A stretch of 64,000 bases of DNA from Yuukianura sp. NJ FZ-2021 (GCA_046563655.1 CM102290.1:11842001-11906000); one strand, 5' to 3'; counted from the stretch's first letter, positions 4,322-41,916 are shown. Notes: a model not told the origin generated them from the letters alone. Numbers and translations: made by a program.

Positions 4322-19248
<14,927 letters not shown>

Positions 19249-19810: not shown

Positions 19811-20991
19811 CTCACTAACTAATGTCAATTGAAGTGAATTATGGCTTTGAGATACTGTGGAATTGTAAAGTATAACGGAAGGAAGTGAGATCTATAGAGT
19901 ATGAAACTAAAAATTATAATTATACTTGAAGTGTATAACTCTCCTGATGCGTCTTTTTACTAATTAACAGCTTTCAGCGGATTTTAGTAATTTTAAATAA
20001 TCCTAAAACTTACTTCAGTGCATGATGTAGAAAACAAGAAAGTAGTAAAGTATGGTTTTAATCATCAACAACGTAACTTCCAGCATTAATAAAAATCAAA
20101 TTCTACATGAAATTTTAAAAACGCTGAAACCCAATTTTTGCAACAATCGAACCACAGTTCCAAAAAAAAGTAGTTCGATTTTCTAAAAACTCTTTTTGTT
20201 GATATTATATAAATTACGAAAAATTTAGTTGCGGTAAATTTTGACGACCATCGATGTAGCCACTTAGAGGCTACACTGTGTGGCACCTTATACCGCTTTA
20301 AGTTAGATCTCTTAAGTAGCAAGACCTAATTTAGTTGCCACCATAGCGTAGCCACACGAGATGGCTGCAGTGGCTACAATGAGGGTCGTAAAAGATTACT
20401 TCAACCACAATTTTAGGCCGGAGAAAACTCTTGTCGTAACAAATAAAGCTGAGGTTCTTAAGTTTGACTTAATTTTTGTTAGCACACTCAATCAATTAAT
20501 TAGTATTTGAACAATATTCCTTGAGAAAATAGGTTAAGACTTACTTCACTCATCAAATCCAGTGAGCAAATTAGCACAGTTGAGTTCACAGGTCCCATTT
20601 CATTCTTAAATTAACGACATCGGGGAACTTAACACATAAAAAACGAAATATAACCTGAAGAGTCAAGTCATTTTTACCGGTAAGGATGGATGTCAACTGC
20701 CCATGATCTAGAAATGTACAAACTTACGCGTTATAGGCCCGGAAATACGGTAATAATTAATTGTAAGATTAGTGAGAACGGTTCTAAAACAGGAACTAAC
20801 ATGGCAACTTTTGGCTGACATGTCACATGACTATGGGATAACAACCATTAAGAAATGCAGCACTGGCACATTATGTACTAATGAGAAGAGATATTTTGTC
20901 TTACTTTGTCAACTACCATTTAAAGGCAATGACGTTTTGAGAGTTAACTAATCGATTGAATTGGTAGAAATTAGATGTAAGATTCTTGTGT

Positions 20992-22928
20992 TCATGCAGT
21001 CTCGATTCGGTCGTAGAAGAGCATGTAGGCATGCTGCAGTAAGACTTGCTCTTTCGGCACTTCTTTGATGAACGTGTCGCTGACCAGGTACCAGCTAAAA
21101 CAGACAAGATTTAACGTTAGTCATAACCACAATTGGTAAATGTGCACAGAACAATTAAAATTGACTACTTACGCTTCCTCACAACCGGGCATTTTAGAAG
21201 GACTCAGTCTGTAGGCAACGAAGTGACCCGTGTCAACACTTCCCCGATGACAAACGACTGCCATCAACTTGTACAATATCGGTGTTCGGTGGAATACGGG
21301 TGGAGGTGGTGCCTTGATTGCTTCGATTTGGATTACACACGGTTCTCCCGACGGTCCAGTCAAATCTAGATCTCTCATTGGCTTCATTTTCATCAAATCG
21401 GTAAAGGTACTGGCAACGGACATGTCCAATTCCAGTGGAAATGAGATAAAGTCAAACCGCTTGCTGGAACACCCATTTTTTCCCCATTCGGCTCGATTCA
21501 CATGGATACAAAGACTTCGAGGAAACTAAATACAAAAAAAAATTGTTAGTCACGAAAAGTAAGAAAAACAGTCACAGTAACCTTTACCTTGCTGATACAA
21601 GTTCTCTTATAAAATGTGGATTTGGTAGGTTTCTCCATAACGTTTGAGCAATTAGCACAGTCGACGGAATGAACCATAGCTGGAACAAAGTAGTGTTCAA
21701 TGAGATCATTTAGTGTTGGGGCAACCTTGGACGGAAGCATGAGCGTAAGGTCGGCAAAGTCTTCAAACTTAATAGGAAGCTGAAAAATGAAAATTTTTAC
21801 TTCAAAATATTAAAATTGCTCCAACAGAGAGAAAAGTTGAAAATGATACCGTGGATTGGCAGCAGATACATTCAAATGATGAAGCAAATCGACCGACGAA
21901 CGGGTTGTTCCAGTCAATAAGGTTTGTTGGCGTTCTAGGGCATTTCGGCACTTCTAGCATAGACCCCTTTGTAACAATGTGTGTACCCATAGCACTCTTG
22001 GATAAAAGATTGGCAATTCCAAGTCCTGCGTCTAAGTCGTCAGTAGTCAACGAGGAAACGCCAGAGTCTGGGAGCGACGAAGGCTCACAATCCGAAACTC
22101 GGTATCGGTATGAGAAAGACAAAGTAGAGTCCTCCACGCTCTTAGCAACTTCCATAAAATCCGGACGGGCCTGCAGTGTTTTCTGTTGTTCAAATAGCCT
22201 GAAAGATTGAGAAAGTGTTTCGTTAGCGAATTGTACTAAACAGCAACCCAATTCAATATGAATTTTAATAGGGTACGGTCACGTACGCCCCCATAATGGT
22301 GTTGAAGAATTCATGGACGTCCTGTTCCTGGTGTGTAGCCAAAGACACTTGGCTCCAATTCTTGAACGTCGTGATAACGTTTTCTGGAATCTGACGAGAC
22401 AATTCTGCAGGCATTTCTCCGACGTCACAGTTTATATCTGCATTTGAATTTTATGTTGCTCAGTTTAGTAACTTTCTTTAAAATCTAAAATGTCAACTCA
22501 CATTGGTTTGAAGCAGCAAGAGCCGAAACAATTTGAAAGTCTGCATGGTTGTCATCACCTTTACAACAACGTTGTTTCAGTTCAAAGTAATTGTTGATGT
22601 AACGGACATTATGCCGGGAAGCTGCAAGAGCTTGAAGGAGTGAGTTAATGTAGCAAGAATTCCCCAAATTATAATATCCTCGAAGATTGCCTTGAGATTC
22701 TGCAAGTAAAACAATCCAAGTAAATTCATGATACTGTCAAATACTGGGTAAATTAAGAACTAGTATGATCGAGAACTTACGGATTGTTGGCTCCCAAATG
22801 ACAGTAGACGATGGAATAGTACGTCGTGGCGGAGGCTTATTACCAAGCCAAATGTAAGCAAGGGCTGCAGCAGTTGCCGAAAACAATCCCACGTTAAAAA
22901 CTAGTCTTTTACTCTCAACGTTTCCCAT
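20992..22928 (-). CDS. USP30: Ubiquitin-specific protease, USP30-like (N-terminal hydrophobic anchor plus USP domain)
   Basis: Exon 1 (22928-22781) encodes MGNVESKRLVFNVGLFSATAAALAYIWLG, a TM-like segment. Cys box GYYNLGNSCYINSLLQALA, then QEQDVHEFF, His box YKLMAVVCHRGSVDTGHFVAYR, and WYLVSD...AYMLFYDR. Stop TGA at 20994-20992. Confidence 0.8.
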
Positions 22929-23689
22929 ACCAAAGCGAGTAGCTGTTCCAACCGTTGATGATACGATGATGATCTGAAATAAAACCGAAACAATTACGTT
23001 CTTAACAACGTAACATTTCGCAATCTCTCGTTGTAATATGACAGTTCAATGCAAGTTACCTTTGATCAAATTCCGAAAACGCAAGAAATGGGTCTATCGA
23101 TTGACTTTCAATTCCTATTTTCAGTGTCAACCCGCTTCAATTAATTCCTGTTCAGAGGTTAGGTCGGCGGTGCCGCACAGGCCCGACGGCCCGCGCCCGA
23201 GTCCGTTATCCTGTTACTCAAATTAGTTCAATCGGTGCTAACAGCAGGCAGTTGTCGCAACGTTAATTCACTATTTCTTGTGTAGTCAATAGTTTAATTG
23301 ATTAGGATGAATAATGAGGCCAGTAAAACAAAAAGTAATTGATTTGAGTAACTTTTTGTTGGATCGCTATCGTTCGTCTGAAAAATTCTTAGAAATGGGA
23401 AATGTTGTTTGTTATTTAGGTTACATGTTTTTGTTCACATGTTTTCATATATTTGGCGCCGTTTCCATGCAGCTGTGACAAATAATTTCGATTTTCGTAT
23501 GGACAGTAACCGTATATTATATTTTTAGAATTGAATAATTTTTTTGATCAACGTATTACGTATTTTAGACAAATAGTGGTAAGAAATTAGCAATAGGGAC
23601 ATCTGCTAGCACACAGTAGAGTCGTCTAAACCTTTAATCATAACTAAAAACCGACTGAGGGAATAACCTCACGATATCCAGGATTCATC

Positions 23690-24811
23690 CTACGCATGTG
23701 GTGGGCTATTCGGTGGGAGTTGTTGACTGGCCAAGGCTCTAAATGCTTCTGCGATTAAGTGGGGGTGTGAATCTACCTGGAAAACAAAAAATCAGAAATT
23801 TTGAATGAAGTTGTTTGGAAGGGGTCCATGTTTTTGTGGATGATGAACGACTGACCATGGATTTCCAGCGGGTAGTGTCCTTGACCTCCGCTGCATGGAC
23901 GCTGATAAACTCTATAGCTTTGGTTTTGAGTTGATTGGCAGAATGGAGATCGGCTAAAATCAATAGATCACTGACTGTGTCAATCTCGAGTCTAGTCCAC
24001 AGATTCTCTTCGCACATCGCTTTCAAACCCTCCAGGGCATACCTGTCCAGAAAAAAAAAGCAATATTTTAGCAATCTGGTTGAGCACGATTGAACTGATT
24101 GATAACCGAAACCTACTTATCAGCTGCGACTAACAATTTGTCAGGCATTTTGTGCAAGGATTTGCTCTTTCCAGTGTACATGAATCGTAACATTTCTCTA
24201 ACAACACCAACTTCAATGTCCGTGATTTCAACTCGATTATTCTTTTGTTCCTCCATTTCATGTTCAAACATTGCGGCAAAAACGCGAGACCTCGCAGCGA
24301 GGATTGCCTTATGAGCTTGTAATTCCCTACCTACAAAAATAACAAGATGGAATTAAAAAATCGTTTCATCAATGTGAGATGCTAGATGCTGGTTGACACA
24401 TCTTACCTCCAACAGATAACGTAACATCACTAAATCTTCCATTTCTAAGCAGATCATCAAGGTTCTCGCTAAGTAGACATTCTGGTGCTGAAAACAATCA
24501 AACACAGTGAGTAGTTCAATTGTGAAATCGATATAGGTAGTATAAACATCAAACATATACTATGATCGAGTACGGATTGTTCGGTCCAAAATGGCAGTAA
24601 TCCACGGAGTACGGCAAAACACATTAACACATAGCTGTCCAAGAAGACAAAGAAGATATTGGGTGGCCACACATAGCCTTCCAAGAAGATATATGGTGGC
24701 CACACACAGCCTTCCCAGACGACAAAGGATGGCCTTGATGTTGAACGCAATCTTCGCAACTAAAAACAATACTACCAAATTCCCAACCACAGCGAAGAAA
24801 GCATCACCCAT
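23690..24811 (-). CDS. SPOP/roadkill-like BTB-BACK protein lacking MATH, with a hydrophobic N-terminal exon related to USP30 exon 1
   Basis: Exons 24811-24574 (weak GTACTC donor), 24487-24407, 24330-24117, 24042-23856 and 23776-23690 are phase-consistent. Translation [54 protein letters not shown]...[14 protein letters not shown]...[13 protein letters not shown]...[23 protein letters not shown] matches the SPOP C-terminal half. Confidence 0.8.
24627..24726 (-). repeat. Internal 33-nt-period repeat encoding LG(R/Q)LCV units
   Basis: ggtggccacaca(t/c)agccttcc at 24662 and 24695, with a third partial copy at 24627. Confidence 0.8.
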
Positions 24812-26661
24812 ACCAAACCAAGTGGAGCAAGCTATTGGCACGTAACGTTCCAACCGTTGCTGATCTGAAATAAACCAAAACTGAAACAATTATGTGAAAA
24901 GAAAAAGAAATCAACCTTTGTTAATTCATGGTCAATGACGCATAATCATAATCAATGAAACTAAAAGTTGTATTTATGAGTCATAACTTATGACTCATAA
25001 GTTATTTATGACTTACCGTTACACCTATATTTGTTCACATGTTTTGAAATATTAGGCGCCATTTCCATTGGTCAAGTAGACAAATCATTTCCAACGTTTG
25101 TAGACAATAGTAGACGACAACTATTTTCAACCATAGGGATTTCCACTTTGAAATTAAATGGACAACTTAAGGAATTAAATTTTAATTAATTGTATTGAGC
25201 AATTTACAATTACAGGTATAAAAAATTCGTTCTCTCTAATGATGCATAAAACGTCAACAATGTTGATTCATGATATCAATAAAGTCATGAATCTTCATGA
25301 CTCATGATTTAGTAAGTTTTTCACTATATCATTTTAATTTTCTATAAATAATAATTAACTGCCATTTTGCATTTGAGTTGTACACCATATACTAATACCA
25401 ATAATAAGAATTAAACAATGATTGTCATTTACACGAGCAGCAGAAATGCTTGTTAAAACAATCGAAAAAATAAAGAAAAACATCGGTTAAACTTACACAA
25501 TCAATTAACTTGATGACCACCAATCCCTCTTCTCTAAAATTAACAACAACAAATTAACTAATACTAACGAAAATAACTTAAATTAAAAAGTAATTAGATT
25601 TTTTTCATATCTTATAGGTCACTACTTTCAGCTACCCTCAAGTTGCGGCTTGCGGTACTTCAAAATCTTTTCTTTAATAAATCAAATGCCATCACCAATC
25701 TGGGAAAAACTTACAAGAAAAAATAGTCCTCATTTTTCTAAATTTCGAAAAACAATCAATTTGAACTGTTGTTTGCTAATAAATTACTAGTGTTTACGTT
25801 TTGGGAATGATTAGTAACTTAAAATGCGATGAGTTAGAATTCGTCATTAGTAGAAAAATGTTGCAAAAATATTTTGAGGAACCATCATTGTATCTAATCT
25901 TTTTGGAAGTGCCGATTGTTTTCTACATAGAAATACTACATAACTCAAAATCCCATTCAGGATTTCCTCATCCAATCAAAAATTTCCAAATTCGTAATTT
26001 CCAAGCGACCTTGCAAAATGTTTCATTTGAAGCATTATCTCCCATAAATTGTTTTCCTAGCGCTGACGCACCCTAATCTGTCCAGGAAAAAAAATCGTTT
26101 TACGCAGTAGGATTAGCACCTCGAGTATCTTTGTCGCTGACGACATCCTTCACTAAACTTTCAAAAAAGCGTCATTTTTTGGAGTCACGCGATCAACTTA
26201 GAATGCACTTATGATAAAATTATTAGTGCTAAAGCTGCATCTAATAAAGTAAAAACGTAGGTAAAGGTAATTATAATACAGTTGAAATGAAATAACAAAA
26301 GGTGGGTATTGGTGGCAGTTACAAAACTCGGGCTTTAAAAACCGAAGCTGCTTGTAGTTTAAAAAGACAGCAATAAGGGGGTGGGAGACAAACTTACTAA
26401 ACAGTTAATTCAAACAAATTAAAACTAAGTTAACAAATCGTAATTCTCTCCGTCAGTCTTCTCAGAACTGTAAAAAATGCAATTACTATTTTCGTCTAAC
26501 TTGAGTAAATACATACTTGTATACTGCTCTTTGGTCTACAACAGTGAATCCACACTTTTCACCCATGATGTTGAAGTGATTGACCTTTGACACTATAAGT
26601 AGGATGAAGCTTTCGATGTTGGACTATGAGCATGATTCGCGTCGGAATGAGTAGGTTTATG

Positions 26662-27320
26662 CTACGTACTGGTTGGTTCGGTGTCCTTGATTCCAAACGT
26701 TTTCCTCAAGCGCATCACAAGTTTGCTGTGGAATTTTTTACCTTTCGGGGTACCAGTAGAATCGGAAGAAGACGATGCTGACGACGAGAGCGACGATCGT
26801 GACTCCGACGACGGTTGGCGACGAATCGGCGGTGCATCACCCGTTGGAGCCGAGGTGCTCGGAAGCACTAAACGCCCACCAAAATTACTACCATTAAAAA
26901 AACACGGATTAGTCCTTTCTTTACAAAAATACAATTTTTGTCAGGTTGTTTTACTTACGTCGAGTGCTGCAGTGAATATGAAGCATGAAGTGCTCCAGCC
27001 GAACCCCGGACACGTCTAGGTCCCCCCATTTCGACAGGTCTTGACCTCTGTGGATGACCTCTTCCGACATCACTGCTTCCAACCAATAGGCTCCCTCCGG
27101 GAGACGTGCTAAGGCTTTGTCCCTCAGACTTCGTCTTGCGTCTTCCTCCAGGCTGGACTCCATTGGGCCCAGTAATGGACACTTTAGGGTTACTTCTGCC
27201 ATCAACTTGTTCGGAGGTTCGACGCTGCCTCGGGTCAACACTTCCTGGTCCTCCAACGGATGATCCTGGACTGGCATACAAAGAATAGTTCTTCTTTACA
27301 ACAGGCATCATGAAGGCCAT
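26662..27320 (-). CDS. Uncharacterised Ser/Gly/Pro-rich protein (~195 aa)
   Basis: Exons 27320-26959 and 26887-26662 join in phase 2. The protein starts MAFMMPVVKKNYSLY and ends KKFHSKLVMRLRKTFGIKDTEPTST. It is GC-richer than its flanks, with a long AT-rich 3' region. Confidence 0.7.
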
Positions 27321-29481
27321 TTTTAACGATTGATGTGGTCAGGATTTGAAAGTGAACTCGGTTGATGAAATCACAGTTTGGCTGACGCAACAATCAAGCG
27401 ACAAATTTCTTCGTAGTCCACAAAAGTAGCAGCTTTGTCTGTTTGGGTAAAAAAAAAACGTAGTGTCAACGAAATCCTCGGTAAACGTTTCTCACAAATC
27501 ACAAATCTAGAATTTACCACAATAGGAAAACTGTAGCTTCGTTCTTTAACAATTTTCGAGTAATCACACTTCAATAAACAACGACATCTGAATAATAATG
27601 TAAGTAATTTATTATAGTATGTCAATTAGAAACAAAAACTGACCTGTCAAGGCAAGAGACACGGATGTGACGGAAACGTTTTGTGGTCTTGTGGTTGTCA
27701 GTTTAATAAGAAGTTGATGAATGAATGATGACAAAGCGTACAACGTGAACGTAGGCGGATCGTCTGTCCAACTCGTACTGAAACCTGAATGAAACTGTAA
27801 TCTGCTGATAGATTTTGCTGGAAGATTTTTAGGCCTGTCTGTGAGTCTGAAACGCGTTATAGTGGCCTCGTTTTTGTATAAGAAATCTAGGAAATCGATA
27901 CTCTGCAAACTCAGCTCGTCGTATCCGTATGTTTATGGCGACGACGAAAACATAAACAACGTCGGACGGGAACAATAGAAGGACGCGATATGTTTGAAGA
28001 TGAGGAACTCGCAGAGTCAAGTGATTCAATTACTCACACTAGTGTGACAAGCAATTTCCCAATTGAGCCTAACTTCTAACGTCGTCAATCCAATTATAAA
28101 CAAACGTTCAGAGTGCGAGAGGATGAAGATAAGAGCCCACTTCAGCGTATACGCTGATGATGAAAAGTGGTCCAAAGTAACGTAATGTCAACTGAAAAGC
28201 AGAAGCGACGAGACATGATAAATACATAAATCCACCTAACTTTTGTACCTAGGTTCATGTATGACTTCCAGGAAAATTTCCAATGGATTTCGTTCCGAAT
28301 CATCAGACACGGCGGAAATATTTTAACAAGTTAACGAAATATTTCAATATAATGTATTCAGTGTACGGTTTTCCCCTGGGATTTGATGCTCTCCCGGAGA
28401 AATTGTTATCAACCAATCCGCAGAGATTTGGAAGCACGCCATTGGTTCTAAAATGAATTGCTTCTAAAAGAGAATTGCTTAGAATATTTAGGATTAAAAA
28501 CAACGAAAATATTAATTTTCTAGCATTGCGGTCATAGGAATGAAATATTTCTGCCATGTCTGATAATAGTGGATCATCAGCATCATGGTTTTTAGGTTTG
28601 GGATGGCGATAATGCTGATCCTGGCACATACTTATTGGATGATTGTCATCGTGTGTTCTGGTTGGATTGGATCTTATATCACACCTAATTGACTATTGTG
28701 TCCCTCGTGATTGATTACGTGATTTTCCAAACGAGGTTTCAAAAGTGCCAATTTGTTTTCTAGGAAATAATGGCTTTGAAGTTGAGCAGCAGTTTGTGAC
28801 ACTGAAAATTGGTGTTTTTTATGATGCCATTTGAAGTGACTTCGGTTTGATAACGGCGTAAACTCATGGAGGCGTGGAGCGTGACGCGTGGCACAAAAGA
28901 TTGTGCAACGCCGAAAATTGCATGACCAAAATCTGGAAGTTCTTTTTGATAAATGATAACAAAGCGAAACTGGAACAAAGAGATGCAATTTCGCCTTGTC
29001 ATGTCAAAATAACAACAGATGTTATTGTTTTGACCAAAGTTTCCAAATTTCGAAACTTTCTGATTACAAAGTTGAGCTTTTTCAAAAGGTTTTGAAGATT
29101 TTGAAACCACAATGCATTGCATTCGTTTTTGATACTGGAAACGCCGAACGAGCAACAAGCATTTTCCACCCCTTAACAACGCTGACGCCGCTTTTAGCGC
29201 TAAAAGCATCTAACCAACGCCCACATCGTACAGATTTCAATTCACAATTTTGAAATTGCAATTGAGTCTGCGGCAGCACTTTTCCAGGAAATACTTGCGC
29301 ATGCGTTAATTGTTAAAGGCTGGTTATGGTTAAAAAACGATTTATTTACCTTAAGGGCAATGATAAAGGTCACTTGGAGGGTCGTAAGTCATCAAAAAAT
29401 TCTGTTAGAATTTGTCAGTCTTGGCAGTACATATTGCGAGGCTAGGCCGACGGCGAAGGACGGTTTCCGTTTAGGCGTCAA

Positions 29482-29880
29482 CAGTGTTGGTGGACGCTTA
29501 AACGTCCAGTGGCTTAATTGCCACTTCCAGTGGATATCCACTGGAAGAAACGCACCCCAAATGGACGAAACTAAAAGTGGATGGAAGAAATCACAAATTT
29601 TGCGCGAAATTCAAATCAATTCAAATTTAAATTTAACGAAATGATATCAGAAAGCTTTACTTTCGCGATTATAGTTAATATATTATTTAAATCGTATTTA
29701 AAAACGATATATACATAGTTTTTGAACTGTGTTTTCACGTTTTTTAGTTGTTTGTAGTCAATCAATTCAAATTCAGAGGGCAAAGCTCCGCCCCTTTGGA
29801 TTCATCCATTTCGTCCATTTCTTCCACTGGATATCCAGCCGTGGATGAAATGTCGAAAAAGTGGATATCCACCAACACTG
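29482..29880. mobile_element. hAT-like MITE, 399 bp
   Basis: 13-bp TIR cagtgttggtgga/tccaccaacactg. Perfect 8-bp TSD ggcgtcaa at 29474-29481 and 29881-29888. Confidence 0.9.
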
Positions 29881-29981
29881 GGCGTCAATAATAATCTCCG
29901 TAATTTCTGCTGTTTGAAAGGCGAGCGGGAGATTCCTTGGTAATTACATAGCTCTGGAACTATCCATCACAGAGCACTCTT

Positions 29982-31481
29982 CTAGTGTGAATTTTGATTA
30001 TGAATTCGAATTTTGCCGCTGTGACGGGTAATTTCAGGTCCAGAGGGGTAATGTCGCTGATGATCTCGTAGAGAGTCGAGCAGTCCACCATTGTTGTTCT
30101 GCCGATGTCGGTGAGAGGAACTTGGACGGTGGTGATCATCTCTGGGATGATACCGATTGTTTCTCGAGTCTTCGTTATGATGTCCGGCAGAACCGTGATT
30201 TACTGTCAGTAACTTCACATGCTAAAAACAAATTCATTATTACAAGTTTTGTTCGGAATTACTAAAGTAATCAATTTGAAAACTAGATAAAGTTGTGCAA
30301 ATGAAGTGACTTACGTCTGAGTAAGCCTCTTCTTGTTTCTTCATTTTCTTTTTGTAGTGTTTCAGATATTTTAGGATGTCTTCATTCTCAGCCTGGAAGA
30401 AACGATCAACTCAGATAAGATTTTTCGATTTACCTACGTTATTATCATAAAAGTGTTCAAAACTTGCCAGTAGATGATCCGAGCTTTTCTCTAGCTGTTT
30501 AGAACTGTGACGAAGTTCCACTACTTTGGTAAAGAATTTACAAAGCAGCCTAAGCTGTTCGTCAGATGACAAGTTAGCCAGTCTAGTCATGATTAGCTGC
30601 TTTGTTTCTTCATGGTCCTTGTAAATAAAACAAAAGCAATGAGATAAGAATGTCGATAGGTAATTCGTAGTGTAAGAATGTCAAATTCAACTAACAAGAA
30701 AATATTTTTACTTTTTCTGGAAACAGCTGAGGTGGACTGGACTCTTTTCCGCAGATGACTTCGTTCTTGTAGTCAATTATCGTGTCAATTGCTTCTATCA
30801 CTTCTTCGCATTCATACAACCATCTAGCATCTTCGTCTGACTCCGTCTAAAGCAGAAACACCATATTGCATCTCAAATTCAATTACTTTCCACACTGTGA
30901 TTACTTTTTAAGACAAATGGTTGTTAAATAACCTGCTTTAGGCGCTGCTTCACTTCTGTTTTGTGGGAAACAAAAATTTCGCGAGCAGTTCTGAGTTCAG
31001 CGATTTCATCCCTGGCCAAATCTATGGTAACTTCTGTTGTGCGTGGTGGAGACATCCGGAACTCTGCCGAATCCTAGAAATACCGTCAAAACTTATTGAA
31101 TGCTCGAGAAACTCACGACCCACGAGCATTTTTTTAGGAGTAACTTTATATTTTTAGGGTCCGGTGGCATACGTATTGTTCCGGTGTATCATGTTGCGTC
31201 TGTTGTTCTTCCTTATCCTCAATTCCCGGTTCCTGTTGTGAATGTGTAGCGAAACTGAACACATAATGTTTATGGTCGCAAAACGTTTCTGCAATCCGGA
31301 CTTTGTTATCCACGGCGGCACGGAATCTAACATTGAATTGTTCCAGATCCTCTGTCTCCTCGGAGTCTTCTGAATCTGAATTATCGTCTTCTTCATCCCA
31401 ACTGTCTGAATTGCCGGCAGAAAATTCATCGTCTTCGTCACAGTCCGAAGTTGACATGGAAGACCTTCGTACATCCGTCAT
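29982..31481 (-). CDS. Costal-2/KIF7/KIF27 C-terminal tail-like protein with an acidic N-terminus and no kinesin motor
   Basis: Six exons (first 31481-31173, second 31073-30933) give ...RDEIAELRTARE...RWLYECEEVIEAIDTIIDYKNEVICG...LIMTRLANLSSDEQLRLLCKFFTKVVELRHSSKQLE...EITRHSGKIRIHNQNSH*. This resembles the Cos2/KIF7 tail motifs as I recall them (EAIEAxDAAIE[Y/F]KNE; LMA[K/R]L..LS..E.R.LL.KYF.KV..LR). Confidence 0.7.
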
Positions 31482-34413: not shown

Positions 34414-35854
34414 TCAAGATGCAGCGGTAGACGTGGCCGGGCGTTTCATTTTCGGTTTTTTGGCTTGTTCATTTTCAGTCTTGCTAGGCTCCTTAACCTT
34501 GATAAAGACACCATCACAATTTGCTCCATGGTCACTCCACCAACGATCAGATGGACCAGGAGCACGATTCATTGCACGCTTGACCATTCCGTAGAAAGGA
34601 TGTCTATGACGACAGGGACCGTTGCACTGCCACCAGTGCTGTTTGTAATGTCCAACTTCGTCATGGAACGAATGATAAATCTAGAATGAATGAGCATTGT
34701 TATTAGTGTAACATCCATCTTCTACTAAAGTGGTGAAAAGTAATTGAGAAAATAATTCAAGTTTTAATTACAGTAATTTTTGCTCCACTGGCTTTATTGA
34801 TCCGGTGCATGTGCTCCTGGAAGTTGGGTCCATGTCCATCACGATCATGGCTATCACCTTTTCCGGGTTCCAGGAACAGATAAGCGTGAATCATCTCATG
34901 CTGTGTAAAAGTAACATAATGGAATGGAAATTAATCCCAGATGAACTTTAGATTGTCAAGTACTAGTAAATGTTAATTCCTTACCAACAATGTTTCCACA
35001 AGATCCTTGCGTGGACGAAGTTTTAGTAACGGAAGTGAAAGCTTGATACGAATTTCGGAGAATCGTCCGACCCGTTTAAAATAGCACAATCCAGCACAAG
35101 TTGTCATCTTTGAGCTCCATTCAACCGTGACTGTTCCAAGTTTGTCCCAGAAGTAGGTGGCGTTGTAAAGCAAGAACAGAGCATGTATGTCGGGATTAGG
35201 ATCGATCAATTCCCAGGAAGGGTCTATGACCGAAGTTGGTTTGGTTTGGCGATGTTGATATGGATCAAGAGTAGTTAGTGCACGAGATGGAGGTGACCGT
35301 GGTAGAGGAACTGGACGAGTAGACGCAGATTGTGGTAATGGAACAGGTACTGCACGAGACAAGGAAGGAAATGACAGGGTAGGCTCAGTTGGAATTGTAA
35401 TTGCGGCTGGCGCAGGCGTATTCCAAAATTCTCGTCGAGCAGTGATAGCCCCAGCAGCAGCGGGCCCATTCGATGATTTCGGTAAAACAGGCTGATCTTT
35501 GGAACGGAATATTGGCCAGAGATCCTTCCCTGGGCTGGATTTGGAAGTGCCTGGAGTGGTATCGCTTTGTTCCTTTCCATTAGATTTAGTTTCAATTCCA
35601 AGGAGCGACTTTGGAAAAACTTGCCATCCGTTTTCATCGACATCGATCTCAACAATTTCAGTCTTTGTACGTTTCGTGTGTCCATTACGTAACTCATCTC
35701 CTTCATGTTGATCGAGCAGTTCATGAGTCGACTCCTCTCCCTTTCTTGATGAAATAGGCTTGTTGGAAGCATTGCCGTTTCCAGCTACCATGATCTCTGC
35801 CGGAATCACTTGCCAACCATCATCATCGAGTTCAATCACTTCCACGGAATCCAT
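34414..35854 (-). CDS. SPRTN: SprT-domain metalloprotease of the Spartan type, ~421 aa
   Basis: Exons 35854-34985, 34900-34772, 34680-34414. Reads DPSWELIDPNPDIHALF...WSSKMTTCAGLC...LSLPLLKLRPRKDLVETLL|HEMIHAYLF (HExxH) ...GHGPNF...HWWQCNGPC...VKRAMNRAP...WWSDH...C.G.FIKVKEP. Confidence 0.88.
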
Positions 35855-38196: not shown

Positions 38197-40632
38197 GTGG
38201 TTAGTGACAGGTTTCACGAAGTCAGATGAGTGAAACTTTCAATTATTTTCATAATTTCATAACTCATGAGAGTCATTCACATAATTTGTTTCAGTCAAAA
38301 GTCATTTCCGAAACTGTCCTAGAAAACCTTTACGCTAAATCTGAGAAGTAAAAAGAATTTTATACTTGTTAACTTCAACCATCAATGTTCGTCAATTCAA
38401 CATTTTTTTATCATTCATTATTTCGCCGAAACTCAAAAAAATAACATAAAAAAACCTATGCCCACTCCAGTTCCAAGCTTATTTAAGTTGAATTATTTAA
38501 AATTAATCACCCTAATTCTTAAATTGATCGTTGGGCAATTCCTAAGGAAAGGTTTGAAGCGTGACTCATTCATTACTTTCATTCTGACATGTACATGTCT
38601 ACATGTCATACTACACGTATGTTAAATCTTGACTACGCTCACAAAAAGAAATCATATCTGCGGTTTAGCGGTCTTTTACGTATGAGGTTGGTAGCCATAT
38701 ACCCGTAGGGAAGAGTTTGTTGAAAATTAATTAGGCTAACTGTGGAATTTATAAAGTCATTTAAAAAGGAAGCAACGGTAGGTGAAACGTTTGCTCAAAT
38801 TAGTAATCGACGCCCTACCAAAGAATGTGCATAGCTGGGCAAAGACAAAAGCCAATTTGCGCCTGTAAACATAATGATGGTTGAGTGAGTTGATGAGGTG
38901 AAGGATGATGCACTGCACTATGCATTCGCCTTGATTCCGTCCAGAAGTCGGCATTAGAAGCTATTTCATTATATGAATTTTGTTCCATTTTCACTATAGT
39001 TGACCTAAATTAGGTAAAGGGAAAAAGTCAAACAAGATAAAACAAAAACTAATTCCTAACAAAGAAAAATTATCAAGCAATTTTCAAGTGGGTTTGATAT
39101 AGGTAAATTAAAACTAGCATAACTAGGGCAAGTATTACCCAAATACTGGAAACATTCTGGATTGGCTTTCTGTAAACCAGGATGAAAAATATTTCTACTA
39201 TTGTTATATTTTTTTTTGTAAACCTCTTTTCCTGTAAATCAGGAGTCGTAAATGATTACTTTTAGTTTAATTTACAAAAATTGAATCGACACAACCTTTT
39301 TTTTTATCTGAAACGATGAATCAAATTTTTATTTAATTAACATGAAACGTTTTAAATGAAAAAAGTGAAAAGTGAAATTTTGAAACTTTATCGAATACAA
39401 AAATTTGGGAGAGAATCCTCCAATTTTTTTCAGTTGTAAAACAGATTAATGGCAAAGCTATAGTATAATAATACTGTATACTTCGTACACTATTGCTGTA
39501 CCATATTAAAATATATTGCATGCATATTGTAATAAAGTTATATCAAGTTTTTAAAATCCGAACGGGACTGGAACTTAAAGCAACTTTGTTGATGATCGGG
39601 TTCTGCCGACGTCTGGTGATACAAGATAGAAGACTTCAATAAAATAGGGACAGGAAGACATTTCTCCTCCTGCCTCTGTCTGCGAGTGTTCCACTCTGAA
39701 TTGTTTACTTTTAAGTTTTGATTTTATCCTCGTTAATTAATGTGTTCGTGTCGTCGATCTTAGTTCGTACTACGGGTCATCGGTTTAGGTAAGTTGAGGA
39801 TTTTCAGCGCTAAGTAGAGGCAGTACTACGCTAAAGCTAAGCAAAGTCATTTGACATTCGTTTCCTTCGGGTGGTCGTGGTGTCGTCCTCGTCTTGTTCC
39901 ACATCGCTGATGTCGTGGTAGTCCCCTTGTGTCCTACATTACAACCAATGAGACCACGATCATCGGGTGATAAAAACGGACATTTGCGGAAGCATATTAG
40001 GCCAACAGGGCTGTTGTTCCGTGGAAGTTAATTAAAGGTGGGTAATCATTCGTGACTATGGATGTTACTATTCTTTAATGCGGCTAGTGAAACAGTTTAT
40101 GTTGAGCCGCACTATGTACATCCATGTGTATTTTTTGTTGTCGTTGTGTTTAGATTAGTCATACAAAGTCTCAGAACTAACTATCAGTTTAAGCGTGTTT
40201 AAAGATTAAAGCTGGAATCAACTTTATGCTAAATGGACAAAACTACTAACCAAGAATGTATGAACTCCAAGGCAGAAATGAGACATCATTTATAGCTTGT
40301 TTCACTTGAAAATGGATGATTGGAGACTGAAAACTGGATAAGAAGGGATCATTAACCTTTTCTTGAGACATTCACTAGTTTATGGTTGCTCGAAATTGCA
40401 TATAAAATTAGTTAGTATTCCTTGACCTATTGAATTACTGTATTTTCAAGCTGCTAATTTTATATTTATTCCTTTCTTTTAGTTACTTATTCATCGGAAC
40501 GTCAATTACCAATATCCATAGGAGGCTAGGAGCGGATTCTGGGTCATACAGATTACAAACCTTAGAGATTCATCGACCAATTAATTGGAAACGCCTTGAC
40601 GTTCTTCCGTCGTCCGCTTATCGTGACACAAA

Positions 40633-41916
40633 ATGACAACAGCATCGGCCGTTCCGAAACGGAGGGCCTTCGACTCCGAAAATGGATCTCCCGACTTAGC
40701 CAGCCTATTCGAATGCCCAGTTTGCTTTGATTATGTTCTCCCACCGATTTACCAATGTCAAGCAGGTCATTTGGTCTGTTCCATCTGTAGACCCAAACTC
40801 TCATGCTGTCCGACATGTCGAGGACCTCTTGGTAAGTTCACTTGTTCTAAATACTACGACTTTTCTTATTTTTTTGTTTTTTGTTTTTTGGTTTTTACTA
40901 TAAACTTACCGATCCCTAGCATGTTGTTTTTTCTTCGTTTCCAGCAACGAAACGAAGCTGTTTTTTTTTCCTCGGATTTTTTTAGTTTTGTTCAGTTATC
41001 TTTTATCTTATGAAGATGCCACGAAACGTGAAAATTCGTGCAGGAGTAAATTCGGAAGTGGAATGGTTCTAACCAATATCTTTTATGTTTGTAGGCAACA
41101 TTCGGAACTTGGCTATGGAGAAGGTGGCCAATACTGTATTTTTTCCTTGCAAGTATTCGGGCAGCGGTTGCCTTAGTATGCTTCTACATCCCGATAAAGT
41201 TGAGCACGAGGATGCTTGTGAATTCCGGCCATACATCTGTCCCTGTCCCGGAGCTTCATGCAAGTGGCAAGGATCTCTGGAGCAAGTTATGCCACACCTC
41301 ATGATGCAGCACAAGTCGATTACTACACTCCAAGGTGACCATTAATCCTACTTTTGTTTGAAACTTGAAAGAATTACAGCTTTATATGAATATTTTTAGG
41401 CGAAGATATTGTTTTTCTCGCGACTGACATAAATCTTCCTGGAGCCGTTGACTGGGTCATGATGCAATCCTGCTTTGGCCATCATTTTATGCTTGTATTG
41501 GAAAAACAAGACAAGAACGACGGTCAGCAATTCTTTGCTATTGTGCAGTTGATTGGATCACGTAAGGAGGCTGAAAAATTTGCCTACCGGTAAGCACTCC
41601 AGTTTTCTACTCCCATTTCTACCTTAAAGCACAGAAAGCACTTTCTTGCTGAAAGCATTCCGTTTCTTTTTCACTTTTTAGGCTTGAACTAAATGGAAAC
41701 CGCAGAAGATTGACCTGGGAAGCCACTCCACGATCTATTCATGAGGGCGTAGCAACTGCCATAAATAATTCTGATTGCCTCGTTTTCGATACAAGTATTG
41801 CTCAAATTTTCGCAGAGAATGGCAATCTAGGGATAAATGTCACTATATCGTTGGTACGTAACTCATCTCTTTATTTGAGCGGTTTGGTCCGTAAACCAAA
41901 TCCACCTGAGTACTAA
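40633..41916 (+). CDS. sina: Seven-in-absentia/Siah RING E3 ubiquitin ligase
   Basis: Exons 40633-40831, 41095-41334, 41400-41589, 41682-41916. Reads [21 protein letters not shown]...[20 protein letters not shown]...[31 protein letters not shown]...[11 protein letters not shown]. Confidence 0.96.

Follow-up and report, generated by a model that had tools for sequence, protein, structure and literature searches.

In our 64-kb window of CM102290.1 from Yuukianura sp. NJ FZ-2021 (the window being the whole stretch of DNA that was analyzed), positions 24811–23690 on the minus strand hold a gene that, judged from its sequence, is probably a real, functional, lineage-specific chimera. Its 5′ part is paralogous to one parent, a neighboring USP30-like gene, and its 3′ part to another, the SPOP family, and the two stand in a single reading frame. 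The best explanation of the locus would be a lineage-specific USP30-leader/SPOP-BTB chimera whose leader is part of the product, an account that we consider about equally likely to be right or wrong. A first-pass annotation had proposed a USP30::SPOP chimera here, and we retain most of that proposal: there is a paralogous 5′ module, a SPOP-family BTB–BACK region with no MATH domain in the window, a USP30-like neighbor, and a strongly hydrophobic leader that is predicted to be helical. Splicing of the leader onto exon 2 is less well supported, and a mitochondrial address is doubtful for reasons given with the leader below.

In the gene model, exon 1 (238 nt) joins exon 2 at 24487 in frame and yields an ORF of 268 codons. 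Exon 1, hereafter the leader exon (24574–24811), begins with the ATG, contains 79 codons plus 1 nt, ends in phase 1, and is followed by a GTACTC donor. The putative intron 1 (24488–24573) starts with ∼15 nt paralogous to USP30 intron 1 and ends in a good, pyrimidine-rich acceptor, TTTTCAG; it is 86 nt long, and the other introns of the BTB and USP30-like genes measure 62–88 nt (introns mapped in the window span 56–296 nt, and most are 62–99 nt). Four intact exons of SPOP-type BTB–BACK sequence follow: exon 2 (24407–24487), where SPOP homology starts, with leucine retained at the positions equivalent to L186, L190, and L193; exon 3 (24117–24330), the core of the BTB domain as defined by Pfam BTB, SPOP in the PDB, and SPOP/roadkill identity; exon 4 (23856–24042), which by Pfam and alignment to SPOP homologues holds the end of BTB and the start of BACK; and exon 5 (23690–23776), aligned to SPOP homologues through the end of BACK and closed by a TAG stop. 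The three internal introns are all GT–AG (3/3) and all in frame. Translation could not start in exon 2, which lacks an in-frame ATG and whose frame is closed five codons 5′ of the acceptor. The BTB exons therefore need an upstream phase-1 exon; the nearest ATG exon upstream is the leader exon.

The assignment to SPOP is carried by several searches. The ORF of exon 3 matched Pfam PF00651 (BTB/POZ) with an E of 1.1e-19 and 71.1 bits (cutoff 20.5) and SPOP in the PDB with an E of 7e-25, and it was 73–77% identical to SPOP/roadkill proteins; this 77% on exon 3 was the best that the homology searches made yielded for the BTB part, which thus has no close relative among their matches. A single-exon ORF scored 24.8 bits against Pfam PF24570 (SPOP/BPM-type BACK), under the cutoff of 27.4; the spliced model ran gap-free through the BACK of 90 homologues, and exon 5 matched 4HS2, a structure of the SPOP BACK (E 2.7e-5). 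Overall, residues 81–266 (186 residues) aligned without a gap to the 90 SPOP homologues, with best identities of 65–71.5%, and 95 of the 111 columns that are ≥95% conserved were kept in the BTB–BACK region; three of the 16 lost sit in the leader junction. The median identity of this module to SPOPs was 64%, versus 84% for SPOPs among themselves, yet it contains zero stops or frameshifts, a combination that argues for a functional gene.

Residues that PMC4910529 assigns to SPOP self-association include L186, L190, L193, and I217 in BTB and Y353 in BACK. With SPOP numbering mapped via the 374-residue PDB chains, the positions aligned to the four BTB residues are unchanged, and Y353 is replaced by F, as in arthropod homologues. 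Relative to the human chains of 374 residues, the protein extends no further than the position of residue 369, and the basic C-terminal tail, which in SPOP homologues comes after a shared P-P, is absent. In SPOP, this tail is a nuclear localization signal. As for the MATH domain, tblastn with eight SPOP-family proteins over the whole window at E ≤ 1 gave matches at 23696–24494 only. Pfam, run on 107 of the window's 180 ORFs with a length of 75 aa or more, returned no MATH match, and neither did a Pfam run at E ≤ 1 on all 58 ORFs of 28 aa or more on the minus strand within 24850–31000. As aligned, the BTB–BACK exons are SPOP-family, intact, and without a MATH exon in the window.

The USP30-like neighbor (20992–22928, minus strand) has a complete model of seven exons and 497 codons with introns of 62–88 nt, and Pfam UCH matches fall on two of its exons. 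For three separate exons, the best solved-structure match in the PDB was USP30 (E 3.8e-10 versus 3.6e-4 for the next family; E 4.8e-4 versus 9.1e-4; and, for the third, E 0.013 with only USP30 chains listed). Its exon 1 (22928–22781), which has a GTAAGT donor in phase 1, codes for a hydrophobic segment at the N terminus. The Kyte–Doolittle 19-residue maximum is 1.65 at residues 9–28, just above the usual transmembrane threshold of 1.6, and the segment is followed by K-P-P-P-R-R.

That the flanks of the leader exon match those of USP30 exon 1 was the observation on which the first-pass annotation was built, and we found these repeats, all on the minus strand. At the 3′ flank, 22778–22818 matched 24571–24611 (78% over 41 nt) and 22761–22776 matched 24558–24573 (88%); at the 5′ flank, the pairs were 22924–22940 and 24807–24823 (88%), 22945–22962 and 24847–24864 (94%), 22964–22983 and 24855–24874 (90%), and 22970–22999 and 24866–24895 (77%). 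Pairwise BLASTN between the two 5′ regions placed two flank blocks collinearly on the same strand, with 37/46 (E 1e-7) and 40/55 (E 6e-5) positions identical. It also returned a block that the annotation did not contain, 23420–23468 in the USP30-like gene and 25018–25068 in the BTB gene (43/51 identical, E 7e-11), which lies 200–500 nt 5′ of the leader/USP30 exon 1 region. The shared DNA thus falls into three parts: the upstream block, a block spanning the 5′UTR and start codon, and one at the exon end that takes in the donor. A search of the full 64-kb window with either 5′ region recovered, apart from the query itself, these three reciprocal blocks only (E 2.7e-9 for the upstream block, then 4.8e-6 and 0.002), and the shared blocks are therefore neither a dispersed repeat nor chance. 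Outside them (the remainder of intron 1, the interior of the exon, the DNA between blocks, and the DNA upstream of block 1), there was no significant alignment (P 0.15–0.54 versus 1000 shuffles each). Because the alignable sequence has been reduced to islands, the chimera looks old.

Within the shared blocks, several processing signals can be followed. The 5′UTR block (24847–24895 in the BTB gene, paralogous to 22945–22999 in the USP30-like gene) carries an acceptor-like TTTCAG in both copies; in the BTB gene it would set an exon start at 24864, with no ATG between this acceptor and the leader ATG. The start-codon context of the two genes is identical over 11 nt. Both first exons start with M-G, end with T-I, and are phase 1, and the BTB gene's exon 1 joins exon 2 in frame, all as first annotated. 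The final ∼40 nt of the leader have their paralogue in the end of USP30 exon 1; one of the eight nucleotide differences in this exon-end block is synonymous and seven are nonsynonymous, and the peptide thus shows no evidence of constraint. By these alignments, the BTB gene has a 5′ module (upstream block, 5′UTR/start codon, and exon end with donor) that is a paralogue of the USP30-like 5′ module.

The leader itself is open for 79 codons from its ATG and for 109 codons from stop to stop. Its hydrophobic segment (residues 4–23) has a Kyte–Doolittle mean of 2.4, as compared with 1.65 for the N-terminal segment of the USP30-like protein, and basic residues lie C-terminal to it; the AlphaFold2 single-sequence model is helical at residues 2–67 and 69–78 (mean pLDDT 85). 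Since the leader segment is so much more hydrophobic than that of USP30, a mitochondrial address is doubtful, and the target membrane of the leader may differ from that of USP30. The leader exon is 90 nt (30 codons, a multiple of three) longer than USP30 exon 1, and most of this difference comes from an in-frame tandem repeat with a unit of 33 nt (11 codons), present in 2.6 copies at 24650–24734 on the minus strand (TRF score 114, 82% matches, zero indels). Shuffled sequences of leader composition stayed open in 2.0% of cases over the 79 codons and in 4.7% over the interior; with the two extra repeat copies removed, 13.6% stayed open, and one antisense frame is open too. Without the extra repeats, the open frame is only mildly unusual. 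The codon-usage log-odds of the leader were slightly negative (−0.076 per codon), whereas USP30 exon 1 and the four BTB exons gave values between +0.04 and +0.21, and the homology searches made found no relatives of the leader.

The leader's donor is weak. It had been described as degraded from GTAAGT to GTACTC, which is correct, and the BTB copy has a 4-nt deletion relative to the USP30 donor. GTACTC matches U1 at 3/9 positions and scores 0.73 bits; 18/19 reference donors score higher (leave-one-out), and among all GT sites in the window it ranks at the 61st percentile. The scoring matrix rests on 19 donors of the window, a small set that is partly of our own choosing. The 10 in-phase GT/GC sites inside the leader ORF are all weak too (≤4/9 matches). 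In favor of the leader, poor donors are also used in this genome at homology-backed junctions in the USP30-like gene (GTATCA and GTACGT) and in the P5-ATPase gene (GTAACG and GTAATC). We infer that the leader is spliced onto BTB exon 2, and we put its inclusion at roughly even chances.

A much stronger donor lies upstream. In the BTB gene, the ATG at the beginning of the upstream block starts an ORF of 17 codons that runs to a phase-1 donor (last exon base 25017). This donor scores 11.0 bits, more than any of the 19 reference donors, and ranks at the 99.9th percentile of GT sites; it is 206 nt upstream of the leader ATG and could bypass the leader. If transcription started at or before this block, the 17-codon ORF could be spliced from 25017 directly to BTB exon 2, and the product would be a soluble, MATH-less BTB–BACK protein of 206 residues, with the leader an occasional cassette exon at most. 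The skipping and inclusion products (206 and 303 codons) are both open, the leader exon counted from the 24864 acceptor (24864–24574, 291 nt) is a multiple of three and runs from phase 1 to phase 1, and the leader's own donor is, as noted, very weak. We nevertheless think this unlikely. The ATG-initiated frame of the USP30 copy of the block closes after seven codons and has no comparable donor, so the block need not be an exon; the intron would be 529 nt, as opposed to 62–99 nt for most mapped introns; and the long open frame of the leader would go unexplained. Moreover, a CCAAT motif overlaps the block's ATG in the BTB copy, and downstream of the block are two adjacent 9-mer palindromes, ATGA[G/C]TCAT, in a 14-bp hairpin (24974–25005, from motif counts and a TRF period of 14 × 2.3), which we take to approximate the consensus of an AP-1/GCN4-type bZIP site. 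With a third palindrome at 25297–25305, these (at 24976, 24990, and 25297) are the only three matches in the 64 kb, where 0.56 is expected. Such motifs would fit a promoter upstream of a start site nearer the leader, and the upstream block may serve as a promoter element or else constitute a short first exon.

The weak donor also bears on whether the locus is merely a decaying by-product of partial duplication, in which the leader is a dead exon, its donor lost to the 4-nt deletion, and either the BTB–BACK exons give no stable protein or the locus yields just an unspliced hydrophobic ORF of ∼83 codons. The donor is indeed indistinguishable from a random GT, the codon log-odds of the leader are negative, its exon end lacks protein-level constraint, its frame is only mildly unusual once the repeats are collapsed, and the homology searches made found no homologue with the same architecture. 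However, the diverged BTB–BACK region has stayed free of stops, frameshifts, and gaps over 186 residues, with all internal splice sites intact, which would be hard to reconcile with neutral decay. Likewise, three short islands of 73–84% identity, with the start-codon context and acceptor-like site among them, survive where the surrounding DNA can no longer be aligned, and look like constraint on the regulatory and processing signals of the copy. We regard decay as improbable. That the BTB–BACK exons are the 3′ half of an ordinary SPOP gene whose MATH exons lie beyond the window or were split off through a misassembly or an extremely long intron, with the leader-like exon an unrelated intronic relic, is very improbable: SPOP/roadkill genes are long in some insects and the MATH search covered the 64-kb window alone, but no MATH was found in that window, its 39 kb upstream on the same strand included, genes on both strands intervene upstream, mapped introns are 56–296 nt, and the BTB–BACK region, an outlier among SPOPs (64% versus 84% median identity) without the conserved basic tail, fits a diverged paralogue better than a canonical SPOP.

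The chimera that we favor can be compared with three known systems. Like the MATH–BTB–BACK Cul3 adaptors SPOP and roadkill (HIB), it has a BTB and a SPOP-type BACK domain with the dimer-interface positions kept; unlike them, it has no MATH in the window searched and no basic tail, its N terminus is an unrelated hydrophobic stretch of 80 residues, and the module is far more diverged. Human USP30 is described in PMC12411550 as having a transmembrane anchor at residues 36–56 and as residing in the mitochondrial outer membrane and peroxisomes. The leader resembles USP30 in being an N-terminal hydrophobic segment followed by basic residues, and its 5′UTR, ATG context, first two and last residues, phase, and intron start appear to derive from the neighbor, whereas its interior is unalignable, 30 codons longer, and much more hydrophobic, and there is no USP domain. 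In Drosophila, tandem duplications are reported to create chimeric structures and shuffle regulatory elements (PMC5460883). As in those exon-shuffling chimeras, the 5′ module of one gene (regulatory DNA and the first exon) is combined with 3′ exons of a neighbor while the donor gene stays intact alongside; here, in contrast, the 5′ exon is remodeled, there is no parental SPOP copy in the window, and the structure is known from sequence, whereas the Drosophila cases are backed by RNA-seq.

We propose that a partial duplication at the DNA level put a copy of the USP30-like 5′ module (upstream block, 5′UTR with its acceptor-like site, start codon, first coding exon, and start of intron 1) before the BTB–BACK exons of a SPOP paralogue, which would have shed its MATH exons and its basic C-terminal tail. 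As both donor exons end in phase 1, the copied exon would read directly into the BTB exon, and the leader would since have diverged and been lengthened by the in-frame 33-nt repeat. The predicted product of 268 residues would have a helical, very hydrophobic leader followed by a SPOP-type BTB–BACK region with its dimerization residues. Because the positive charges lie C-terminal to the hydrophobic segment, the protein would be held at a membrane with the BTB–BACK part toward the cytosol. That the leader exon "replaces the MATH domain," or that the product acts as a "membrane-tethered Cul3 adaptor" or as a "SPOP decoy," as the annotation has it, is likewise inferred. Membrane insertion and binding to Cul3 and SPOP are predicted: the product could still self-associate, pair with canonical SPOP, and probably also bind Cul3, and, being without MATH, its role would be to cap SPOP/Cul3 assemblies outside the nucleus or divert them. 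Alternatively, the leader itself may meet substrates.

The SPOP-type BTB-BACK gene (24811-23690, minus strand) was modelled by us with five exons, at 24811-24574, 24487-24407, 24330-24117, 24042-23856, and 23776-23690, which together give 268 open codons and GT-AG boundaries at all three internal introns. Homology to SPOP begins exactly at exon 2, and residues 81 to 266 align without gaps to 90 homologues, at 65 to 71.5% identity to the best ones. This module is an outlier (median identity to the 90 homologues of 64%, compared with 84% among those homologues). It retains 95 of the 111 columns conserved at 95% or more; of the 16 that differ, three fall in the leader junction. The BTB and BACK interfaces through which SPOP self-associates include L186, L190, L193, I217, and Y353, as given in an excerpt of PMC4910529; mapped via 374-residue PDB chains, the equivalent residues here are L, L, L, I, and F. 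The C terminus lies at the equivalent of residue 369, and the basic tail of the homologues is missing. As far as sequence can tell, a BTB-BACK module that is diverged yet intact and gapless argues that the gene is functional. No MATH exon was detected by tblastn with eight SPOP-family proteins across the whole window, by Pfam on the long ORFs searched (107 of 180), or, in the 6 kb upstream, when every minus-strand ORF of 28 aa or more (58 in total) was run against Pfam at E ≤ 1. A metagenome scan with exon 4 for relatives of this diverged BTB paralogue returned 312 pattern matches, none confirmed. The frame of exon 2 is shut five codons upstream of its acceptor, the exon contains no in-frame ATG, and the first such ATG lies inside the BTB domain; a coding exon ending in phase 1 is therefore needed ahead of exon 2.

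The window is compact animal DNA of ∼39% G+C with introns mostly of 60 to 100 nt. Pfam searches covering 107 of the 180 ORFs of at least 75 aa identified CH domain, UCH (two exons), BTB, SPOP-type BACK, SprT, HEAT, Sina (two exons), Alg9-like glycosyltransferase, ribosomal L22/L17, P5-type ATPase, and THOC7 families. In the protein collection searched, the closest named relatives of the BTB exon were arthropod SPOP/roadkill proteins (73-77% identity), and none closer was found; the species and its close kin are therefore absent from that collection. Ubiquitin- or protease-related genes are clustered within 21 kb, comprising the USP30-like and SPOP-like BTB genes (20992-24811, minus strand) and, by Pfam, a SprT-like protease (34976-35854) and a Sina/SIAH E3 ligase (40627-41913); this grouping may be coincidence. 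One open frame of 1335 codons (12430-16434, plus strand) matches no Pfam family at E ≤ 0.001, and two other long frames, 4902-6632 and 7854-8927 (both plus strand), are likewise without a family. For the USP30-like gene, a word search with its 118-aa exon gave 126 candidates, none scoring, and its 158-aa ORF had no PDB match at E ≤ 1. An Rfam search of 20000-28000 returned a single miRNA match, whose 22 bits fall short of the gathering score of 75 and which we regard as chance.

The first-pass annotation had claimed that the BTB gene, in its first coding exon (24811-24574), has flanks in common with exon 1 (22928-22781) of the neighboring USP30-like gene, both on the minus strand, and this was borne out. 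The 3′ flanks are 78% identical over 41 nt and 88% identical over the 16 nt reaching into the intron, while the 5′ flanks carry four short repeat families of 77 to 94% identity that include the start codon. BLASTN of the two 5′ regions aligned 37 of 46 (E = 1e-7) and 40 of 55 positions (E = 6e-5), and it revealed an additional block, the strongest, which the first reading had missed (23420-23468 against 25018-25068, 43/51, E = 7e-11). All blocks are collinear and on the same strand. The upstream block lies ∼500 nt from the ATG in the USP30 copy and 210 nt from it in the BTB copy. The uniqueness of the blocks rules out that the similarity stems from a dispersed repeat or a transposon: against the whole window, the sole non-self matches were these reciprocal blocks (E = 2.7e-9, 4.8e-6, and 0.002). 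The surviving blocks indicate that the duplicated unit was the whole 5′ module, from the upstream element to the start of intron 1. DNA between and around them is unalignable (P = 0.15-0.54), and of a MAFFT global alignment, which misplaced the 5′ half, the 3′ part alone was used. With islands alone remaining, the duplicate appears to be old or heavily remodeled. The leader and USP30 have the same 11-nt sequence context around their start codons, and an acceptor-like TTTCAG is kept in both copies with no ATG between it and the start codon. Differences in the exon-end block are one synonymous and seven nonsynonymous, and conservation there therefore reflects a DNA or RNA signal rather than a peptide. 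A ∼40-nt patch of very high G+C (23163-23203, minus strand) lies within A+T-rich DNA between the upstream block and the 5′UTR of the USP30-like gene and has no counterpart in the BTB copy.

The three introns kept in the BTB part rule out a retrocopy and thus point to DNA duplication rather than retroposition, and the breakpoint lies inside intron 1, between 24558 and 24488. A tandem duplication running from an intron of a SPOP paralogue to intron 1 of USP30 would produce the order chimera, then intact USP30, and would leave a parental SPOP copy upstream of the chimera. Within the window, tblastn and Pfam detected no parental SPOP copy upstream; either it was lost or the event was more complex. 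Tandem duplication that makes chimeric genes and shuffles regulatory elements is well documented, as summarized in an excerpt of PMC5460883.

The leader exon (24811-24574; its peptide is P0001) is open for 79 codons, or 109 counted between stops, and its phase-1 end coincides with the site homologous to the USP30 donor. Relative to USP30 exon 1 it has 90 extra nt, most of them contributed by a 33-nt in-frame tandem repeat of 2.6 copies (24650-24734, minus strand), with an 11-residue period and one arginine per unit. Such 11-residue periodicity is typical of amphipathic, lipid-binding helices, and AlphaFold2 without an alignment modeled the leader as one long continuous helix (mean pLDDT 85). 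The hydrophobic segment has an acidic residue ahead of it and lysines and arginines behind it, an order that, under the positive-inside rule, would leave the BTB-BACK part on the cytosolic side, as in USP30. USP30 itself is anchored by a transmembrane segment at residues 36 to 56, according to an excerpt of PMC12411550. The leader is hydrophobic throughout, with a Kyte-Doolittle maximum of 2.4 (residues 4-23) versus 1.65 for the USP30 leader, and its target membrane may be nonmitochondrial, given how much more hydrophobic it is than the USP30 segment. Relatives of the leader were not recovered by a word-based search of longer proteins (268 candidates, none scoring), by a metagenome scan (537 pattern matches, none confirmed), or in the ESM Atlas (no usable match), and neither leader matched a Pfam family. 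The USP30-like protein (P0004) begins M-G-N-V-E-S-K (22928-22908, minus strand), whose Gly2, Ser6, and Lys7 we take to resemble an N-myristoylation signal; the BTB leader retains this Gly2 without the serine.

Splicing of the leader to exon 2 (the 24574/24487 junction) has roughly an even chance. In favor of inclusion, the intron would be 86 nt long, inside the 62 to 88 nt span of the other introns of the two genes, and its acceptor is good. Length changes in the leader are multiples of three, and both the start-codon context and TTTCAG are conserved. Given its composition, the open frame is unusual, as just 2.0% of shuffled sequences remain free of stops across 79 codons, and 4.7% across the interior; however, collapsing the repeat copies raises the share of open shuffles to 13.6%, and one antisense frame is open too. 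Against inclusion, conservation at the peptide level is missing from the exon-end block. The leader donor, GTACTC, matches U1 at three of nine positions, and no more than 4/9 is reached by any of the 10 in-phase GT/GC sites within the leader exon. Scored with a matrix built from 19 junctions (six from the USP30-like gene, three from the BTB gene, and 10 from the P5-ATPase gene), this donor has 0.73 bits, below 18 of the 19 references in leave-one-out comparison and at the 61st percentile among all GT sites of the window. Five full-length homologues served to map the P5-ATPase junctions, which were kept with at least four of five votes, along with two single-vote junctions that split one long candidate; other low-vote candidates were dropped. 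Poor donors are nevertheless tolerated in this genome, as the USP30-like gene uses GTACGT and GTATCA (first intron bases 22286 and 21849, minus strand), the latter junction being fixed by alignment of the next exon to human USP30. The P5-ATPase gene apparently has a GC donor after 58802. Codon usage, slightly negative for the leader and positive for verified exons, also weighs against inclusion, though for a sequence of such hydrophobicity and repetitiveness the measure does not discriminate clearly.

Alternatively, the leader could be omitted and the upstream block joined directly to exon 2 (24487), giving a soluble BTB-BACK protein of 206 codons. In the BTB copy the block (25018-25068) has an initial ATG, 17 open codons, and a phase-1 donor at its end whose score, 11.0 bits, exceeds those of all 19 references and reaches the 99.9th percentile. 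The block can also be spliced via an acceptor at 24864 to the leader, giving 303 codons; with a length of 291 nt, the exon 24864-24574 leaves both products open. Against this structure, the frame of the USP30 copy of the block stops after seven codons and the strong donor, as read by eye, is absent there; in the BTB copy a CCAAT motif, presumably a promoter element, overlies the block's ATG. The palindrome ATGA[G/C]TCAT occurs three times in the window (at 24976, 24990, and 25297, where 0.56 would be expected in the window), each time within a 330-nt stretch upstream of the leader exon (24976-24998 and 25297-25305), and two of them make a 14-bp hairpin. They resemble AP-1/GCN4-type bZIP sites, which would suggest a stress-responsive promoter at the BTB gene that is missing from the USP30 copy. 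A scan for bacterial-type promoters and terminators, a method ill-suited to an animal gene, re-found the palindromes alone. CCAAT and the palindromes would fit a promoter ahead of a start site nearer the leader. Given this promoter-like arrangement and the absence of the block's frame and donor from the USP30 copy, we rate skipping below splicing through the leader.

Taking the leader-containing and leader-skipping versions together, we consider it probable that the locus is a functional, lineage-specific chimera of a USP30-derived 5′ module and SPOP-derived BTB-BACK exons. We read it as a MATH-less SPOP paralogue with an anchor borrowed by exon shuffling, the chance that the anchor is included standing near one half. 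Its product may be membrane-tethered, may bind Cul3, and may act as a decoy, as the first-pass annotation had proposed. A more ambitious scheme, which we think unlikely, would make it one half of an evolved E3/DUB pair, in which the anchored MATH-less SPOP paralogue, as a Cul3-adaptor scaffold, and USP30 would sit on one organelle surface under common control, their shared promoter elements and anchor exon having the same ancestry, or else an extranuclear cap limiting the growth of SPOP oligomers, its 11-residue-repeat helix lying in or on a membrane. Among the literature matches listed, there was neither a natural USP30/SPOP fusion nor an SPOP-type adaptor with a transmembrane leader, which does not prove that such proteins are unpublished.

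Even in the skipping version, the locus exemplifies a partial gene duplicate that captured a promoter and first exon, and either way the mechanism of origin is already well known. With the leader spliced in, the locus would amount to a natural domain-swap experiment in the ubiquitin system, in which an E3 adaptor exchanged its substrate-binding domain and nuclear tail for the membrane anchor of the neighboring deubiquitinase. It would mean that neighbor-to-neighbor exon shuffling can re-address a ligase scaffold, and it would provide a natural MATH-less SPOP for studying SPOP/Cul3 oligomer capping or dominant-negative control.
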